DNA of 41,245 bases, taken from UHGV virus genome UHGV-0086138; one strand, given 5' to 3'. The position numbers were made by a program, and so were the translations under genes. Origin of the DNA: a virus. A model generated the notes under the pieces. The model made no database searches. It worked only from the letters and a program-made list of their open reading frames with translations, and was not told the DNA's origin. This document shows positions 1,102-32,946 of this stretch, one piece after another (within the stretch, counting starts at the first letter, position 1; each line of letters opens with the position of its first letter).

Positions 1102-1350
1102 TCATGCCGCGTTGCTCACAGGACGATATACACGTTGCTGAACAGGAGGTTTTTTACCCTGGAACTCTGCCGGGCTTGCTGCCTGACGTTCATCAAGCCA
1201 ACGCTCAACTTCATCACGGTTCCATGCGCAGCGTTTATCGGTGATATACCAGCGTTTAGGAAATTCCCCTGCGCGCTCCATACGGTCGATAGTGCTCCAT
1301 GACAGTGGCACCACCGCCAGGAGTTCCTTCTTACCTAATGCACCTTTCAT
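1102..1350 (-). CDS. AlpA-family (prophage CP4-57-type) DNA-binding regulator / excisionase-like protein
   Basis: 82 aa; HTH-like segment and conserved W/R-rich region typical of AlpA family; AGAGAGGT RBS. Confidence 0.7.
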   Translation of the reverse strand: MKGALGKKELLAVVPLSWSTIDRMERAGEFPKRWYITDKRCAWNRDEVERWLDERQAASPAEFQGKKPPVQQRVYRPVSNAA

Positions 1351-1399
1351 AAATACCTCTCTTGGTTGCAGTGCGGCGCGCGTGGCGCCGCGGTGGTGG

Positions 1400-2281
1400 T
1401 TACATAGATGTTTCGTTTAATTCTTCCCGACGAACGCTGTAAACGTCGGTGGCTTTTGCCAGCAGTTCGTCATCATCTGAAAGTTTTTGTGCAATGTATT
1501 TGTAAGCCTTATCCAGTTCGGAGACAGTGCTGTAATTCATCGCTGCGCTGGTAAAGGCCATCAGCATTTCTTCTGGATCACGGCTATCCGCTTTACGCGT
1601 TTGCTCATCAGGCTTTTTCACTGGTTTAGCGTTGATCAGACTGTTCATTCCCGCAGCAGTAGTCGTTTGCGGAGTAATGTCTCGCTCAACGCGCGGTGCC
1701 GTTTCCTGTAATTCGTCAGGGGTGTAAACACCGAGAAGTACATCAGGAGCGTGCAGGCGAGCCCATCGTTTCGTGCAAAGATAGGCAAGCTGCTGGCGCG
1801 GATCCTGTTCCCACAATGGAGAGTTACGCACTCCGGCTTGCGCCATACTGATGGTAAGCTCACGGGGTTCTGCTTCTCCTTTAAGAACTGCTGACACAGT
1901 TACCGTCAGATTCGGTGATTTATCTGTTTTGCCGTTAACATTCGACCAGTCACCGCTCCAGCGATAATTCAGGCGTGTCGCTAGCAGGCTGGAAGAGGAT
2001 ACGACCGCGTTTACCAACTGTGCTTCGTAGCCTAACGTTCCGTTTACCACATGCGTTTTCTGCGCCACGGCGAAAGGGTTCATTCCCCACTGTGCCGCCT
2101 GCATGGTCACCGCCAGACAATCGGCAGGTTTGCCTTCAAGATGTTTCGGTACAGTCGCTTTGCTTTGTGACATCAACTCCGCGAAACGCACCAGTTGATT
2201 CATGCCCTCCGGGCTGAAGATTGCCGCAGCAGTACCTACAGTTGCGCCTGGTTGTGATGTGATTGCGATATCATTGCTCAT
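1400..2281 (-). CDS. RecT/Red-beta family single-strand annealing protein
   Basis: 293 aa; resembles phage SSAPs (e.g. shares ERDITP segment with lambda Bet as recalled); 4-bp ATGA overlap with upstream exonuclease gene. Confidence 0.8.
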   Translation of the reverse strand: MSNDIAITSQPGATVGTAAAIFSPEGMNQLVRFAELMSQSKATVPKHLEGKPADCLAVTMQAAQWGMNPFAVAQKTHVVNGTLGYEAQLVNAVVSSSSLLATRLNYRWSGDWSNVNGKTDKSPNLTVTVSAVLKGEAEPRELTISMAQAGVRNSPLWEQDPRQQLAYLCTKRWARLHAPDVLLGVYTPDELQETAPRVERDITPQTTTAAGMNSLINAKPVKKPDEQTRKADSRDPEEMLMAFTSAAMNYSTVSELDKAYKYIAQKLSDDDELLAKATDVYSVRREELNETSM

Positions 2282-3099
2282 ACGTACATATCCTGTTTAC
2301 GTGCCCAGTCAGGGCGTTTAATAATTTCCACGCCGCCCCATTCATCATTGATGCGGCATTCGTGATAGGTATTCAGATCCCGGCGGAACAGAGCGTGCCC
2401 GGCATCGACATCCGGCGCATCCAGCTCGAACACGCGTACCGGATACCGACCACAATCAATGCTTTCGCTCACGGCAAGAAAGAAAAAACCATGCGACTGA
2501 CCAGTAACCCTCATCGCTCCTTCGCGGTACATTGCGTCCTGCACGTGGTAGCGGAATTCCTCGATGTGGCGTGCAAAACGGTCCATATCTGCAACCTTTT
2601 TCACGTCGACGATCACGTTGTGCTCGTTCAGCCATTTGTCTGGACGAATGCGGCACAACTCACCAGTCTCTTCATCATTCCAGTACATTGATGCTTCGCA
2701 GTAACCAGGTGCTTCCAGCATCCAGCGTGCCGCCGGGTGAGCCATTGCGCTATCACGCATCAGCTCCAGTTTTCGCCACTGCTCTGCATCAAGTACCGAA
2801 ATCCCCATATCCGCTACATCACGAATAAATGCCTCTTCGTCAGCTTTACCTTGTTTTGTCCGACGATCGAATTTCGGTGAAACGATGAAGCGTTTGTCAA
2901 ACTCTCCAGGTTCCAGAAGCAGACAGTGCAGAGCAGTACCCATGTCCAGTGCAGACTTCTTCTCTTCGTCTTCCGGAGCAGCCTTCACCCATTTCAGAAG
3001 GGCAGGGTTCTTAGCCACCATATCTAGCTGCGACTTACTCACGCCGTCACCGGCGTGGTAGTCCTCGTTGCTGATATCGAAATAAATTCCCGGATTCAT
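2278..3099 (-). CDS. PD-(D/E)XK-type exonuclease (exonuclease VIII/RecE C-terminal-like partner of the SSAP)
   Basis: 273 aa; position immediately upstream of SSAP with overlapping stop/start; conserved acidic/lysine residues consistent with PD-(D/E)XK nuclease fold. Confidence 0.65.
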   Translation of the reverse strand: MNPGIYFDISNEDYHAGDGVSKSQLDMVAKNPALLKWVKAAPEDEEKKSALDMGTALHCLLLEPGEFDKRFIVSPKFDRRTKQGKADEEAFIRDVADMGISVLDAEQWRKLELMRDSAMAHPAARWMLEAPGYCEASMYWNDEETGELCRIRPDKWLNEHNVIVDVKKVADMDRFARHIEEFRYHVQDAMYREGAMRVTGQSHGFFFLAVSESIDCGRYPVRVFELDAPDVDAGHALFRRDLNTYHECRINDEWGGVEIIKRPDWARKQDMYV

Positions 3100-3395
3100 G
3101 CCGCGTCCCTCTGCCCATCAATCTGATCAGCCAGATCCCAGCGGGCGATAATTGCCATTGCCTCGCGCCGGTAGGCATCCATTAGTTCTTCGAACTCAGG
3201 GCTGTCTTTAGCGGCCTCCAGTACTTCCTGGCGAACGCCTTTAACTGTTACAACGTCGAAAGTTGATGCCAGTTGATGAAGCCGGATACTCTCAATCAGT
3301 TCAACTTGTCGGTCATATAGCTGTTCTGACAGGCGGTAGTCCTTGTCGAATGCCAGCATGATTTTTTGAAGATTTTTCTGCTGATTAACGTTCAT
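3096..3395 (-). CDS. hypothetical early protein
   Basis: ORF in early-left operon; start assigned to ATG (MNVNQQ) that overlaps stop of upstream small ORF (TGATAATG). Confidence 0.5.
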   Translation of the reverse strand: MNVNQQKNLQKIMLAFDKDYRLSEQLYDRQVELIESIRLHQLASTFDVVTVKGVRQEVLEAAKDSPEFEELMDAYRREAMAIIARWDLADQIDGQRDAA

Positions 3396-3397
3396 TA

Positions 3398-3550
3398 TCA
3401 GCCCTCCCATATCTCGTTATCGTTGGCCACATCGCGAGCTTCTTTGCTGACGAAAGCCCACTTAATGCCTTCCTGTAAGGTGCGGAACTTCCAGCTCATG
3501 AATCCGCATGCAGTAACGCAGTACCAACCGTTGATGATTTTCCACTGCAT
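3398..3550 (-). CDS. small protein (50 aa), first gene of leftward early operon; not in ORF track
   Basis: ATG at 3550 with GAGGT RBS, translation MQWKIINGWYCVTACGFMSWKFRTLQEGIKWAFVSKEARDVANDNEIWEG, TGA stop; sits directly downstream of a TTGACA promoter and operator. Confidence 0.45.
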   Translation of the reverse strand: MQWKIINGWYCVTACGFMSWKFRTLQEGIKWAFVSKEARDVANDNEIWEG

Positions 3551-3568
3551 AACTTGTTACCTCGGTCT

Positions 3569-3585
3569 GTTACCGTTGAGGTAAT
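3569..3585. promoter_or_regulatory. operator-like palindrome GTTACCGTTGAGGTAAT overlapping -10/+1 of leftward early promoter
   Basis: matches ATTACCy-N3-AGGTAAT family; lies between TTGACA promoter and the small ORF start. Confidence 0.55.
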
Positions 3586-3606
3586 AATTATGCGTATCTG
3601 GTTTGA

Positions 3607-3612
3607 TGTCAA
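3607..3612 (-). promoter_or_regulatory. -35 hexamer (TTGACA on minus strand) of leftward early promoter (PL-like)
   Basis: perfect TTGACA, 16-17 bp from AT-rich -10 (TAATTA), flanked by two operator palindromes. Confidence 0.5.
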
Positions 3613-3630
3613 TAGATATGAGTTAAAAAA

Positions 3631-3647
3631 ATTACCCATTAGGTAAT
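3631..3647. promoter_or_regulatory. operator-like palindrome ATTACCCATTAGGTAAT
   Basis: 17-bp inverted repeat upstream of leftward promoter. Confidence 0.6.
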
Positions 3648-3654
3648 CGAATAG

Positions 3655-3682
3655 GCAATAAAAAAGCCGCCAGAAGGCGGCT
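3655..3682 (-). terminator. rho-independent terminator downstream of repressor gene
   Basis: hairpin AGCCGCC-AGAA-GGCGGCT followed by T-run on minus strand. Confidence 0.6.
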
Positions 3683-3703
3683 TACTTACTGAAAAATATG
3701 ATT

Positions 3704-4288
3704 TTATTGTTTGTTTTTTTCGTTCTGGTTGATGACAAATTCAATGTAACTTTCGATCTTTGCTTTCTCGGTTTCGGGTAACAATGCGTAGCGCGAGCGA
3801 TCATAGTTGATGGTCGCAGGGTCGTGCGGGTGAATCAGTAATTCATAGCCGTGACGCCCGAATGCGGATGCAACATTCTCCAGGGTGGAAATGGAAACGC
3901 TGACCTCATTGTTTAACAGGCGGCTGATTGTCACCTGGGCGACGCCGGATGCGCGGTGTAGTTTTCCCTGCGTTGAAAGGTCGCGGCTTTCGCTCATCCA
4001 GCGTTCCAGGTTGTGAGCCGCCAGCTGACCTATATCACTCGGGCCGACAGGCTGAAAACCTTCCTGAGAAAGCGAGCGATCGATATCAAGCCAGTTACGG
4101 GGTTTATTGGCGGCAGCTTCAATTTTTCGCGCAACCTGGTCGCCGATAACCTTCTTGCCAAGAGCCCAGCGGTTTACCAGATTTGCCTGAGTTCCAAGTT
4201 TTTCTGCCATCCGCGTCTGAACACCATTGAATTCACGGTCGATCAAGTCGTTGAGATTTTGCCTGCGGACGTCCTGGATACTTTTCAT
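3704..4288 (-). CDS. prophage repressor with two XRE-type helix-turn-helix regions; no LexA-like S24 peptidase domain evident
   Basis: 194 aa; HTH-like segments near residues 25-45 and 110-135; divergent from Cro-like gene with three operator palindromes in between. Confidence 0.7.
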   Translation of the reverse strand: MKSIQDVRRQNLNDLIDREFNGVQTRMAEKLGTQANLVNRWALGKKVIGDQVARKIEAAANKPRNWLDIDRSLSQEGFQPVGPSDIGQLAAHNLERWMSESRDLSTQGKLHRASGVAQVTISRLLNNEVSVSISTLENVASAFGRHGYELLIHPHDPATINYDRSRYALLPETEKAKIESYIEFVINQNEKNKQ

Positions 4289-5039: not shown

Positions 5040-5903
5040 ATGAGCAGACATGCAACAGATTGGGCCTGGGAGACAGATCCAGGTAGCTCATCATTAAAGC
5101 TCATACTGCTCTCGATGGCTGACAGAGCCGATGAATATAACCTCTGCTACCCCAGCATAGAACGCCTCGTTAAAGACACTTGCCTGAATAAAAAAACCGT
5201 GCAGGCCGGGCTTATATCGCTCATGAAAATGGGGCTTATTTCAGATACCGGAGAGAGAAAGGGAGCGACAAAAAGAGTGCGGGTTTTCTCTCTTAATATA
5301 ACCAAAAACGGGAACATTAAAGGCAACCGAGAGGGGGGCAATGAACCCGAAAACGGTAATGTTACCGAAAACGGGAATATACCCAAAAACGGGATGTTGA
5401 ATGATCCCAAAAACGGGATGTTGAATGATCCCAAAAACGGGATGTTGAATGATCCCAAAAACGGGATGTTGAATGATCCCAAAAACGGGATCCAGAACCA
5501 GTCATATAACCAGTCATTTAACCAAGAGAGGGAGAGCAGGACAAAAAACGGGGATTCTGTGCATCATGACCCCGGCGCAAACAACGCCGTGATGAATAAC
5601 TTTGTTCCTCCTGGTGGGCCAGGGCAATTAGGCAAATTTGTCATGCATGAACAATGGCAGCCATCAGATGACTTTCTTCGGAAAAGCTCATTGCAGGGGA
5701 TCTACCTGGACAGTCTGCCAACGGCACAGGAACTTGCAGAGTTCAGAATTTACTGGATGGCTGAGGGTAAGGCATACCATCAGGCACAGTGGGAGCAGAA
5801 GCTGGCAAGGCGGCTGCAGATTAGCAGACAGAAGCAATCAACATTACCTGATAACAACGTTCCGCACTGGAACAGCCCTGAAGCATGGGAGGATTTCTTG
5901 TGA
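5040..5903 (+). CDS. replication initiator (lambda O-like role) with N-terminal HTH and internal iteron array
   Basis: 287 aa; N-terminal HTH-type domain; 4 perfect 24-bp direct repeats inside gene (encode PKNGMLND x4); followed by P-like gene. Confidence 0.75.
   Translation: MSRHATDWAWETDPGSSSLKLILLSMADRADEYNLCYPSIERLVKDTCLNKKTVQAGLISLMKMGLISDTGERKGATKRVRVFSLNITKNGNIKGNREGGNEPENGNVTENGNIPKNGMLNDPKNGMLNDPKNGMLNDPKNGMLNDPKNGIQNQSYNQSFNQERESRTKNGDSVHHDPGANNAVMNNFVPPGGPGQLGKFVMHEQWQPSDDFLRKSSLQGIYLDSLPTAQELAEFRIYWMAEGKAYHQAQWEQKLARRLQISRQKQSTLPDNNVPHWNSPEAWEDFL
5347..5491 (+). repeat. iteron-like direct repeats inside replication initiator gene (4 perfect 24-bp units CCCAAAAACGGGATGTTGAATGAT at 5382-5477, flanked by degenerate copies)
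   Basis: perfect tandem units read directly; analogous to ori iterons inside lambda O. Confidence 0.7.
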
Positions 5904-6685
5904 ACAACGTTTTTACCGCGATACAAAACCGTGACGGAGAAGCCCTTTCTCGCATGTCAGGTTATGAGCATCAGTACACCAACAATGACAACGTGGTGAA
6001 CATGTCAGCAGAGAGGCTTGTTGATGCCCTTTTCAAACAGCTGAAACAACTGTTTCCGGCGGCAGTGGTAACCAACCTGAAGACGCCAGAGCAGGAAGTC
6101 GCTGCAAAACAGCAGTGGATTGCTGCGTTTGCCGAAGGTGGGATCCGAACCCGTGAACAGGTTTCTGCTGGTATGCGCCACGCCCGCGCCAGTGAATCTC
6201 CGTTCTGGCCGTCGCCAGGGCAATTCATCAAGTGGTGCAAAGACAGCAAGATGGTTCTTGGCGTCACCATTGACGATGTGATGGCGGAGTTTCACCGGTA
6301 CAGCAAGGAAAAAAGTTTATATCCTGGTAGTCCCGAAAGATTCCCGTGGCGACATCCGGTTATGTACTGGGTCGTATGTGATACCCGCCGTGCAATGTAT
6401 CAGCGCCAGCTTAGCGAGATTGAGGTTGAGAAACATGCGCGCAGGCTGCTCGATGATTGGGCGAAAAAGGTGGCTTCTGGACAGCAGATACCCGATCCGG
6501 TGATCAGCATACAGGCAAAGCCAGAGCCCATGAGTACACCTCCGGACACAGGGAGAGACGTTTACCATCCACCAGGGCGAAGTTTCGGATGCATGCCTAA
6601 CGCCGCCACCCTTGGGGGAATAACACCGGCGCAGTGGCTGATGGAGGAATACAGGCGAGGAAAGGCGGCAGGATTTATCAAGTAA
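5900..6685 (+). CDS. replication protein P-like helicase loader
   Basis: Recalled similarity to lambda P (segment ...GMRHARASESPFWPSPGQFIKWCK vs lambda ...GMRVARRQNRPFLPSPGQFVAWCR); start assigned to GTG 5900 after GGAGG RBS, overlapping O stop (GTGA). Confidence 0.8.
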   Translation: MNNVFTAIQNRDGEALSRMSGYEHQYTNNDNVVNMSAERLVDALFKQLKQLFPAAVVTNLKTPEQEVAAKQQWIAAFAEGGIRTREQVSAGMRHARASESPFWPSPGQFIKWCKDSKMVLGVTIDDVMAEFHRYSKEKSLYPGSPERFPWRHPVMYWVVCDTRRAMYQRQLSEIEVEKHARRLLDDWAKKVASGQQIPDPVISIQAKPEPMSTPPDTGRDVYHPPGRSFGCMPNAATLGGITPAQWLMEEYRRGKAAGFIK

Positions 6686-6802: not shown

Positions 6803-7147
6803 ATGAGAAAACAGATGCAGGCTCTTGGTCGACTCAAAACAGGCCAGATGAACAAAACAGAATCTGCGTATTGCCAGCATCTTGAGCAGCGTAAACGTGC
6901 AGGGGAAATCGCCTGGTATCGATTCGAGGGTATCAAGCTGCGGTTAGCTGATAACACGTTCTATACGCCAGATTTCGCTGTGATGCTCGCCACCGGAGAG
7001 ATGGAACTGCACGAAGTGAAAGGTTTCTGGACCGACGACGCCAGGGTGAAAACCAAAGTCGCCGCAGATCAGTATCCGTTCCGAATCATCGGGGTAACGG
7101 TTAAGCCAAAGAAAGCAGGTGGCGGATGGAAAATCGAAGAGTTCTGA
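6803..7147 (+). CDS. DUF1064-family phage protein
   Basis: 114 aa; typical size and motifs of DUF1064 proteins found in phage replication modules. Confidence 0.6.
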   Translation: MRKQMQALGRLKTGQMNKTESAYCQHLEQRKRAGEIAWYRFEGIKLRLADNTFYTPDFAVMLATGEMELHEVKGFWTDDARVKTKVAADQYPFRIIGVTVKPKKAGGGWKIEEF

Positions 7148-10322: not shown

Positions 10323-10395
10323 AGTAGATTATGCATGATGAATTTGATGGGTTTTGAATACTGCCGCCAACTATGGCGGCTTTATTTTGCATGGT

Positions 10396-10424
10396 ACTAT
10401 TACCACAACGGTAACTATTACCAC
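10396..10424 (+). repeat. two 11-bp direct repeats ACTATTACCAC (10396-10406, 10414-10424) just upstream of terS start
   Basis: read directly. Confidence 0.6.
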
Positions 10425-10431
10425 GGTGGTT

Positions 10432-11028
10432 ATGATGCCTGCTGAACCTAAAACCTATAAACGCAAATCAACGCAATTTAAGCCACTAACAGCAATGCAG
10501 GAGGCTTATTGCCAGTCATACATCAAAACGCCTGAAAACCAGACTCAGGCAGCGATTAACGCAGGATTCTCCCCAAATACAGCGGCAGTTAAAGCCAGTG
10601 TCATGATGCGCGATGAACGCATTCAAAAACGGATTGCCGAGCTGATGGAGGAGCGCAACAAACGAATGCGCGTCAGTGCCGATTACGTTCTTATGCGCCT
10701 GGTGGAGATCGACCAGATGGATGTGATCGACATCCTCAACGACGATGGGAGCCTTAAACCAATCCGTGAGTGGCCGAAAATCTGGCGCACTACGCTTAGT
10801 GGCTTTGATCTGTCATCGACCATCATGAACATGAACGAGGATTCGATAGAGACAATCCTCAAAAAAATTAAATGGCCTGACAAGGTGAAGAACCTTGAGC
10901 TGATTGGTAAGCATGTTGATGTCAACGCGTTCAAAGAACGTCTGGATGTTAATGTGAATGTGACAATTGCTGATCGCATAGCAGCAGCCAGGAAGCGACT
11001 CAAAGAACGTCAGGATGGTAATCAGTGA
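10432..11028 (+). CDS. terminase small subunit
   Basis: Precedes large terminase with overlapping stop/start; start placed at ATG 10432 because upstream part of track ORF is low-complexity translation of direct repeats. Confidence 0.65.
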   Translation: MMPAEPKTYKRKSTQFKPLTAMQEAYCQSYIKTPENQTQAAINAGFSPNTAAVKASVMMRDERIQKRIAELMEERNKRMRVSADYVLMRLVEIDQMDVIDILNDDGSLKPIREWPKIWRTTLSGFDLSSTIMNMNEDSIETILKKIKWPDKVKNLELIGKHVDVNAFKERLDVNVNVTIADRIAAARKRLKERQDGNQ

Positions 11029-31108: not shown

Positions 31109-31819
31109 TCAGAAGAACCCTGCCTTGTCGTTGATGTATTCCGCGTGCGTCTGGATATCACGCAGGCATTTGCTCACACCGACGATGTAGCAGAACATGG
31201 TGGTCAGCTCCGCCGCCGCGCCCGATACGTCGTGCCCGTCTTCCTGTAACTGGTTCAGCAGATTCATCAGCAGTGAGTTCTCCGTCAGGCCGAGAACACC
31301 AGACGGCGAGTGAATCAGGCTGCGGTAGCCGGGCTTCAGCGGGGCGCTGTAGGTTTTGTTCTCTATCTTCATTGCCTGCATCACTGCTGATGCTGTGGCG
31401 TTTGCAACCTGGTCGGCAACCATCTTTATGCGTTCTTCCTGCGGGAGCGAGTTTTTAATGTAACTTCCGGTGCGGCGGATCTGAGGAAGAACCTCACCTG
31501 TAACCCATTTACGAAAGCGGTAGGGGATAGTGCCTGGTGTCACTGCGTCGCGGCAGCGGAGGATCAGTGTGTAGAGGCCTGACTCGGAGATGATGTTGAT
31601 CTCTTTTACTCGGCTGTCAAAAATTGCACGATGTTCATGCCCTATGTTGAACATAGACCTTTCATCATCATCCAGTTTTTCAAGTGCTTGGGTGACGTTT
31701 TGGATACGCAGCGCACTACAAACGTCTTGGGCTACAAACCATGGTTGGCCATCGATAATGATGGAACGGATAGGGTTAACAGATTCAAATTTGAAGATGG
31801 CAGTTTGAGCATTAGCCAT
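31109..31819 (-). CDS. antirepressor (Bro-N domain plus C-terminal antirepressor domain)
   Basis: Bro-N-like N-terminus (FKFESVNPIRSIIIDGQPWFVAQDV); ATG 31819 with GGAG RBS; C-terminal domain paralogous to 32969..33226. Confidence 0.75.
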   Translation of the reverse strand: MANAQTAIFKFESVNPIRSIIIDGQPWFVAQDVCSALRIQNVTQALEKLDDDERSMFNIGHEHRAIFDSRVKEINIISESGLYTLILRCRDAVTPGTIPYRFRKWVTGEVLPQIRRTGSYIKNSLPQEERIKMVADQVANATASAVMQAMKIENKTYSAPLKPGYRSLIHSPSGVLGLTENSLLMNLLNQLQEDGHDVSGAAAELTTMFCYIVGVSKCLRDIQTHAEYINDKAGFF

Positions 31820-31975
31820 GGTGGTTATCTCCACTTAGTGATTTTAATCACCACCGCAACGCCAATTACTGGTGGTGAACTGGACAAGGTTGGCGTACCG
31901 GCCTAAGTGGTACCGGCGTCCTTTCGGACCCCTGCCCAGCCCACCATAATTCGGATATAGCTGTGCTTAACGCAT

Positions 31976-32217: not shown

Positions 32218-32946
32218 ATGGAAGTTTTCTGGATAGTTGTTGGTGTGGTTGCGGTGATTATTTATGTTATCAACCAGAACAAGACTAAGATCTCTGATCG
32301 TACGGTCGTTAATCATAACAAAACGATAAAGACCGAAGATGGGGAGATAACGATTAATCGTACACAGGTGATAGAACACACCTCTACTCAGTTTCAAAAA
32401 ACTGGAGGTAATGCGCCTAATATTTCCGCACCTCCTGCTTATGATAGTGCGGTAATCCAGACATATTATAAACAGCAGGAGTTAGCAAAAGAGAGGCAAC
32501 TGATTCAGCCAAAGCCGTTTACAGCTGAGCTTCCACCTGGAGTGTCAACGCGTCCGGCATATCATGGAAGATTCCCTGGTGATGACATATCGTCTCAGTC
32601 ATCTAAAAAAGCACCTCAGGCAGTATCAGAGCCAGCAAGAATACCTTCTGTATCGCCGCCAAAAGAAGAATCAGCTAACAGAGTTTCAAGTGGTAGCAAG
32701 CAGTGCTTGCGATGCAGAATAAACCTACCATATGAAAAATTCAGGAAATCGTCAAAAAATCCAGATGGATTGACTAAGTGGTGTGCAAGGTGTCTCGATG
32801 GCCCAAAGAATACACGCCATATGAAGTGGTGCCCAATTTGTAATGTCCGCAGAAAACGAACCAGCTTTTACCCTAATAATCAAAATGCGGACGGATTAAT
32901 GGCATGGTGCAAAACGTGCTGGGATGAGCACAAAGCGAAACGATAG
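32218..32946 (+). CDS. membrane-anchored protein with duplicated C-terminal CxxC zinc-ribbon-like motifs
   Basis: N-terminal TM helix; two repeats of C-x2-C ... DGL-x-(K/A)WC-x(2)-C; GAGGA RBS. Confidence 0.5.
   Translation: MEVFWIVVGVVAVIIYVINQNKTKISDRTVVNHNKTIKTEDGEITINRTQVIEHTSTQFQKTGGNAPNISAPPAYDSAVIQTYYKQQELAKERQLIQPKPFTAELPPGVSTRPAYHGRFPGDDISSQSSKKAPQAVSEPARIPSVSPPKEESANRVSSGSKQCLRCRINLPYEKFRKSSKNPDGLTKWCARCLDGPKNTRHMKWCPICNVRRKRTSFYPNNQNADGLMAWCKTCWDEHKAKR

Follow-up and report, generated by a model that had tools for sequence, protein, structure and literature searches.

The 41,245-nucleotide stretch of viral DNA analyzed here, UHGV virus genome UHGV-0086138 (the window), carries on its minus strand, at positions 3398..3550, an open reading frame (ORF) of 50 codons with the product MQWKIINGWYCVTACGFMSWKFRTLQEGIKWAFVSKEARDVANDNEIWEG, here called p50. 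p50 should be the first gene switched on when a prophage of the epsilon15/phiV10 type escapes its repressor. Its status as a real, expressed gene of the epsilon15 gp37/phiV10 gp39 family is virtually certain. The best explanation of the evidence as a whole, which in our judgment falls just short of an even chance, is that this real gene encodes a protein-binding immediate-early effector. The region around the ORF is 97-98% identical to the Escherichia phages phiV10, vB_EcoP_ZX5 and EC.W1-9, which belong to the genus Uetakevirus (epsilon15-like temperate podoviruses), and a prophage in E. coli WP8-S17-ESBL-12 is 100% identical to the window over 281 bp.

A 50-codon ORF by itself is not significant, since the first 8 kb of the window contain 103 ORFs of at least 30 amino acids. 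The case for coding is made by a full-length profile match, by the pattern of substitution and by conserved homologs with invariant synteny. Residues 1-50 of p50 align with positions 1-50 of the 50 positions of the PHROG 898 profile (E 1.9e-38). Over the first 38 codons, the pooled ratio of nonsynonymous to synonymous differences (pN/pS) among six diverged phages is 0.20-0.23 in frame, and the other two sense frames give 1.74 and 1.16; substitutions at codon positions 1, 2 and 3 number 55, 64 and 174, so that 174 of the 293 fall at the third position. Residues 1-38 are under strong purifying selection (pairwise dN/dS, the corresponding ratio of substitution rates, 0.02-0.5), and the ATG and the GAGG that precedes it are conserved in the aligned relatives. 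A preliminary description of this DNA had named beforehand the absence of a conserved frame in related prophages as the result that would speak against the gene, and the frame proved to be conserved. An ORF on the opposite strand, 3366..3584(+), was considered and rejected: neither its start nor its ribosome-binding site is conserved, and its pN/pS, 0.42, is the shadow usually cast by a true sense frame at 0.23. In the record of Enterobacter phage Tyrion (NC_031077), a 70-amino acid coding sequence, gp39 (positions 2569-2781 of our Tyrion locus), is annotated opposite the p50 homolog, and the homolog itself (49 amino acids, 85% identity) carries no annotation; Tyrion gp39 is probably mis-called.

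Both ends of the gene are as the preliminary description had them. The GAGGT ribosome-binding site is separated by a spacer of 8 nt from the ATG at 3550, and the stop codon TGA (3400..3398) and the ATG (3395) of a gene of 99 amino acids, with TA between them, together make TGATAATG. The GGGAGGG ribosome-binding site of the 99-amino acid gene (3408..3402) lies within the last codons of p50. To judge from the sequence of this junction, p50 is closely coupled to the 99-amino acid gene, with translation running straight into its start. The p50 stop lies -4 to +5 nt from the next start in every context, whichever gene comes next.

The claim that p50 is unannotated does not hold for the public records, and p50 had seemed so because the ORF track then used had a cutoff of 60 amino acids. 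phiV10 gp39 (YP_512294.1) and the proteins of 15 further phage records match p50 with 100% identity, epsilon15 gp37 (NP_848245.1) with 79%, and p50 has the RefSeq entry WP_001198620.1, "hypothetical protein." It belongs to PHROG 898 (function unknown), which all 23 of the 23 aligned homologs also match. Of 5426 complete E. coli genomes, 558 (~10%) carry the locus. The family forms ~60 clusters of 46-54 amino acids across Escherichia, Salmonella, Klebsiella, Enterobacter, Citrobacter, Hafnia, Serratia and Erwinia, and homologs are also known from Scandinavium and Pseudocitrobacter. The window copy has the ~50-residue length and the conserved positions of the family and is the first gene downstream of a repressor with two helix-turn-helix (HTH) domains, here called Rep, and its operators. 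It shares with phiV10 gp39 and epsilon15 gp37 the same length, the same position after Rep and the leftward promoter pL, and the same coupling, and is thus an ordinary member. A search of p50 against Pfam, NCBIfam and PADLOC gave no match, and the 23 family members searched against Pfam and PHROGs at E <= 10 returned PHROG 898 and noise only. A profile search of 1.84 billion representative proteins gave 19 matches, all of them the ~50-amino acid family in full-length or truncated/frameshifted form, with the exception of a 1929-amino acid tandem-repeat artefact (P0030).

Reading leftward on the minus strand, the order is two-HTH repressor, terminator, operator, promoter, operator, p50, 99-amino acid gene, exonuclease, RecT and AlpA. 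A TTGACA promoter bracketed by two operators, with p50 first behind it, had been proposed, and this arrangement is confirmed: the promoter scan gives 10 of 12 matches, and two perfect TTACC-N5-GGTAA palindromes stand around the promoter. The first ends 19 nt before the p50 ATG; the second lies 20 bp upstream of the -35 hexamer and 62 bp, centre to centre, from the first. The TTGACA is kept at the same place in relatives. The epsilon15 RefSeq record labels the equivalent palindromes as repressor-binding sites, and the Rep homolog of phage ZX5 has been shown to act as a repressor (PMC9782041). That study found that the homologous Rep and Ant govern the choice between lysis and lysogeny and did not address the p50 ORF (PMC9782041). 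The intrinsic terminator of the repressor gene insulates pL from read-through.

The 5' leader of p50 is ~27 nt long and unstructured (z 0.86). Short leaders of this kind are found in the window, phiV10, Tyrion, BUCT554, Hafnia and Erwinia, and long leaders (70-150 nt) in epsilon15, Klebsiella, Serratia, Scandinavium and enteropathogenic E. coli (EPEC), where a third operator stands just before the p50 ribosome-binding site. This third operator was seen in locus L004 (epsilon15, ~2395-2500) and in loci L005, L010, L016, L018 and L024. The epsilon15-type leader also has an imperfect hairpin, GCAGAAACCACCACTTCGTGGATTTCCTGC; the short-leader form of the window has neither the hairpin nor the third operator. 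In 11 of the 12 relatives read, an operator-like palindrome ends 13-19 nt before the p50 start; in one of these, L015, the half-sites are degenerate. That the operator keeps this distance from the ATG in both leader types argues for selection on tight repression, either of the p50 cistron or of the operon from its first codon onward.

The TTACC-N5-GGTAA pattern occurs 14 times in the window with one mismatch allowed (9 perfect), against 0.63 expected, which suggests a genome-wide set of sites for the repressor. The same pattern with N6 spacing was tried and gave chance matches only. Operator-like palindromes are found at pL and at the rightward promoter pR. They also come in pairs ahead of the DUF1064 gene (6803..7147), where the small-terminase gene (10354..11028) begins, and in the interval that separates the Bro-N antirepressor gene (31109..31834, minus strand) from a 242-amino acid ORF (32218..32946).

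Comparison of relatives separates what is constant around p50 from what is replaced. p50 is first after the repressor gene and pL in 36 of 36 Uetakevirus phage records; p50, the 99-amino acid gene and the repressor each occur in 36 records of the phage collection, with an identical breakdown by organism. In 12 further genomic or metagenomic Enterobacterales loci, p50 always follows Rep directly, and the Cro-like gene is divergent. Rep is the only constant neighbor of p50. No homolog of the 99-amino acid gene was detected in the Serratia, Hafnia and L018 loci, and in L018 a 550-amino acid RecE-like gene follows p50 directly. The exonuclease and RecT of epsilon15, L013 and L015 have no detectable similarity to the types found in the window, and p50 is retained. 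A cargo gene of 319-348 amino acids follows p50 in EPEC E2348/69, Serratia and Hafnia. Since p50 stays while these neighbors are replaced, it is independent of the recombination module. What does not vary is the place of p50 as first cistron after the operator and promoter.

The cargo genes lie between the homologs of p50 and of the 99-amino acid gene, have starts overlapping the p50 stop and give no Pfam match; the site right after the first cistron resembles a variable hot spot. The 99-amino acid gene diverges faster than p50, with 51% identity to epsilon15 against 79% for p50. In one Hafnia relative its slot is taken by a GamL protein (PF28165), the phi80-type anti-RecBCD protein. GamL has been described as an anti-RecBCD class (PMC12315714). 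A GamL identity for the 99-amino acid gene was considered and was not confirmed, BLASTP finding no similarity between its product and the Hafnia PF28165 protein; by analogy of position, the gene may be another, unrecognized anti-RecBCD type.

Conservation within the protein is concentrated in its N-terminal part. The Escherichia, Salmonella, Klebsiella and Enterobacter copies hardly vary over the first 25 residues, MQWKIINGWYCVTACGxMSWKFRTL, and W3, G8, Y10, T13, G16, S19, F22, W31, F33 and A38 are conserved in distant members. Most of the conserved residues are aromatic or occupy turn positions. The two cysteines are dispensable in distant family members, and a zinc finger or disulfide, considered because of the CxxxC spacing, was rejected since the cysteines are not conserved. 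The last 10-12 residues exist in two types, which are different frames of the same conserved nucleotides, ATATGGGGGTGAGCAAGTGA, a segment in which the next gene has its ribosome-binding site and start codon; the C-terminal tail is thus constrained as DNA or RNA and not as protein. Net charge in the family ranges from -3 to +4 (pI 4.6-9.5) and is 0 in p50. An AlphaFold2 model from 23 sequences (pLDDT, the predicted local distance difference test, 75.4) places strands at residues 2-6, 9-14 and 18-22 and helices at 25-34 and 36-44. A transmembrane N terminus, considered because this end is hydrophobic, was rejected: the mean hydropathy of residues 3-20 is ~0.6, a Kyte-Doolittle estimate made by hand and not a tool output, and the better model has beta-strands there. 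Foldseek searches with the model returned nothing below E 0.6 in BFVD or E 3.8 in the PDB, and a sequence search of solved structures nothing below E 0.27, the matches being short chance strings.

p50 is the promoter-proximal cistron of a leftward early operon controlled by Rep. Control by Rep, together with an operator a few nucleotides upstream of the ribosome-binding site, would keep p50 silent in the lysogen and make it one of the first proteins produced on infection or induction. The product would be a soluble domain of ~40 residues, with three beta-strands followed by two helices, an aromatic core and an unconstrained C-terminal tail. It would most likely bind another protein, either a host component conserved across the Enterobacterales or a phage early protein, and would act at an early point of the lytic programme or during the decision phase; nucleic-acid binding would be improbable. 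The role would be that of an immediate-early effector, comparable to the small pL proteins of lambda (the Kil, CIII and Ral class) without being homologous to them. This protein-binding early-effector mechanism is advanced tentatively, as we judge it somewhat more apt to be wrong than right. It is possible, if on balance rather unlikely, that p50 is the founding member of an uncharacterized class of immediate-early effectors with an undescribed mechanism and a conserved target in Enterobacterales, which might be a defence system, the division machinery or a protease.

A parallel in position is offered by lambda Kil (47 amino acids) and other phage Kil proteins, which like p50 are small, lie in a repressor-controlled pL operon and are encoded immediately upstream of anti-RecBCD and recombination genes. 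p50 differs in standing first in its operon, while kil comes several genes after N, and there is no sequence similarity (hmmsearch, -0.3 bits). The hmmsearch database comprised 16 sequences, lambda CIII, Kil, Ral, Orf28, Gam and N, and P22 C3, Kil, Arf, Abc1, Abc2, Ral, Orf45, Orf56, Orf78 and Orf87, and every score reported was negative. A small early regulator or effector at the lambdoid Kil/CIII slot is plausible by analogy, position being the only basis for it.

Several points weigh against an effector that binds protein. An analogy of position with Kil and CIII carries little weight as evidence. The strict linkage of p50 to the Rep/Cro module could point instead to a role in the genetic switch. 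The three-strand, two-helix fold is tentative and predicted with moderate confidence only: an earlier AlphaFold run with 16 sequences was all-helical at pLDDT 54 and unusable, and it is because the shallower alignment gave an unusable model that we treat the fold in this way. Literature searches by phage name and accession number turned up no mention of gp37, gp39 or PHROG 898 and no functional data.

The main alternative, which we regard as unlikely, is that p50 is a small regulator of the phage's own expression and a member of the immunity module: a Rep antagonist, a partner of Rep or of the 76-amino acid Cro-like protein, an RNA polymerase-binding factor, or a nucleic-acid-binding factor that fixes lytic transcription in place after pL has fired. 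Charge is not conserved in the family, some members being net negative (pI 4.6-5.5), and for this reason we prefer protein binding to nucleic-acid binding. Nor does p50 co-vary with Rep, which is 42% identical to its epsilon15 counterpart where p50 is 79% identical. The structural matches are of a generic kind and fall short of significance in Foldseek, and the cysteines resembling a zinc knuckle are not kept across the family. Lambda N and P22 gp24 are likewise encoded by the first pL gene, but p50 lacks their Arg-rich motif. The preliminary description had already remarked that the protein is not Arg-rich as N is, and rightly so: two of the 50 residues are Arg, none of them among the N-terminal 22, and the net charge of 0 compares with +15 for N. 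There is no nut-like structure in the leader, and a simple consensus scan, which does not address Rho-dependent terminators, found no intrinsic terminators on the minus strand between positions 1 and 3600. A role like that of N is thus unsupported.

Considerably less probable is that p50 assists the RecE/RecT recombination and anti-RecBCD module as an accessory factor, in the manner of P22 Arf (47 amino acids, a cofactor of Erf). p50 is in the same operon, just upstream of the gene in the Gam position, the exonuclease and RecT; Arf is also encoded by a small gene just upstream of pL recombination genes and is close to p50 in size. However, p50 has no similarity to Arf (-1.2 bits), Abc1, Abc2 or Gam, and it persists beside exonucleases and annealases that are undetectably related to those of the window (epsilon15, L013 and L015), as well as where the homolog of the 99-amino acid gene is undetected or is separated from p50 by cargo genes. 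Because the recombination genes swap type in this way, we prefer an effector that binds another protein.

Slightly less probable again is that p50 is a coupling or leader cistron whose translation loads ribosomes onto the start of the next gene or unmasks it, the peptide itself having little function. The constant spacing of the p50 stop and the next start, whatever gene follows, is what such a leader would show, as are the next ribosome-binding site embedded in the 3' end of p50 and the use of two frames for the C-terminal residues among subfamilies. A pure leader, however, would not keep its peptide sequence from E. coli to Serratia. Residues 1-38 are under purifying selection, the N-terminal 25 are nearly invariant across the hosts' four genera, and a folded domain is predicted from the model. 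It is this conservation of the peptide that leads us to favor protein binding here as well.

The last alternative, that p50 is a homolog of lambda CIII, the FtsH inhibitor that stabilizes CII, has a negligible chance of being right. Lambda CIII and P22 C3 are likewise encoded in the pL operon and are ~50 amino acids long, and the preliminary description had pointed to a faint resemblance of the p50 start to that of CIII (MQW..I.GW against MQYAIAGW). The likeness goes no further than size, position and that start, and MQYAIAGW is itself not conserved between lambda CIII and P22 C3. BLASTP of p50 against lambda CIII gives no alignment at E <= 100, hhalign of the p50 family against an alignment of lambda CIII and P22 C3 gives a probability of 0.4%, and hmmsearch scores CIII at -1.3 bits. 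The core ESLLxRITRKLRxGWKRLxDILNQPGVP, taken from the lambda/P22 alignment, has no counterpart in p50. CIII requires an amphipathic helix, whereas the N terminus of p50 is predicted to be a beta-sheet. The sequence comparisons refute homology to CIII; p50 had been located correctly and its likeness to CIII over-read.

Table 1. Coordinates of p50, its control elements and neighboring genes. Positions are those of the window except for the three cargo genes, which are numbered in their own loci.
Feature	Position	Strand	Basis or remark
p50 (50-amino acid protein-coding gene)	3398..3550	-	ORF, PHROG 898, pN/pS, annotated coding sequence in relatives
Shine-Dalgarno GAGGT	3559..3563	-	read in sequence; GAGG(T) kept in 9 aligned phages
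Leftward early promoter (pL-like), TTGACA-17-AATTAT	3584..3612	-	promoter scan, 10/12 matches; TTGACA 3612..3607, 17-nt spacer, AATTAT 3589..3584
Operator TTACCGTTGAGGTAA	3570..3584	.	perfect palindrome; overlaps -10 and start site
Second operator TTACCCATTAGGTAA	3632..3646	.	perfect palindrome
Intrinsic terminator of repressor gene	3664..3683	-	terminator scan; annotated terminator in phiV10
Repressor Rep, two HTH domains	3704..4288	-	Pfam HTH_3
99-amino acid gene, PHROG 856 (unknown function)	3096..3395	-	downstream of p50
PD-(D/E)XK (DUF3799) exonuclease, same operon	2278..3099	-	Pfam E 1.1e-22
RecT annealase, same operon	1400..2281	-	Pfam E 1.2e-31
AlpA	1102..1350	-	
Operator-like palindromes (starts)	3570, 3632, 4344, 4392, 4729, 6723, 6785, 10400, 10418, 13545, 31022, 32089, 32183, 33303		
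Cargo gene, EPEC E2348/69 (L024)	1966-2925		
Cargo gene, Serratia (L016)	5150-6196		
Cargo gene, Hafnia (L020)	3249-4229		

Some features of the neighboring genes were also observed. In the window (1400..3099) and in most relatives, the exonuclease (273 amino acids) and RecT (293 amino acids) are encoded by separate, overlapping genes; in phiV10 a single RecE-RecT fusion coding sequence of 1761 nt, PhiV10p37 (L001, 1335-3095), takes their place, and it is either a genuine fusion or a sequencing frameshift. Between RecT and AlpA, at 1362..1395 (-), there is a GC-rich hairpin without a U-tract, GCGGCGC-CACG-CGCGCCGC, which matches an epsilon15 feature annotated as "stem-loop; transcriptional pausing." On the plus strand, the DnaT-like replication protein (5040..5903) contains the octapeptide NGMLNDPK four times in tandem.

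As a sequence feature p50 is nothing new: it is an ordinary hypothetical gene that the catalogs already contain, with a PHROG of its own and with annotation in phiV10, in epsilon15 and in RefSeq E. coli genomes that number in the hundreds. The phage group that carries it includes phages for detection and biocontrol work on Salmonella and O157. Small promoter-proximal phage proteins have repeatedly proved to be host-takeover or anti-defence factors, and with that precedent a functional study of p50 would be cheap and could be informative. The upside of p50 as an uncharacterized immediate-early small protein is modest. Its value is that of a lead, a conserved and tightly repressed first lytic product of a prophage found in about one-tenth of complete E. 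coli genomes.
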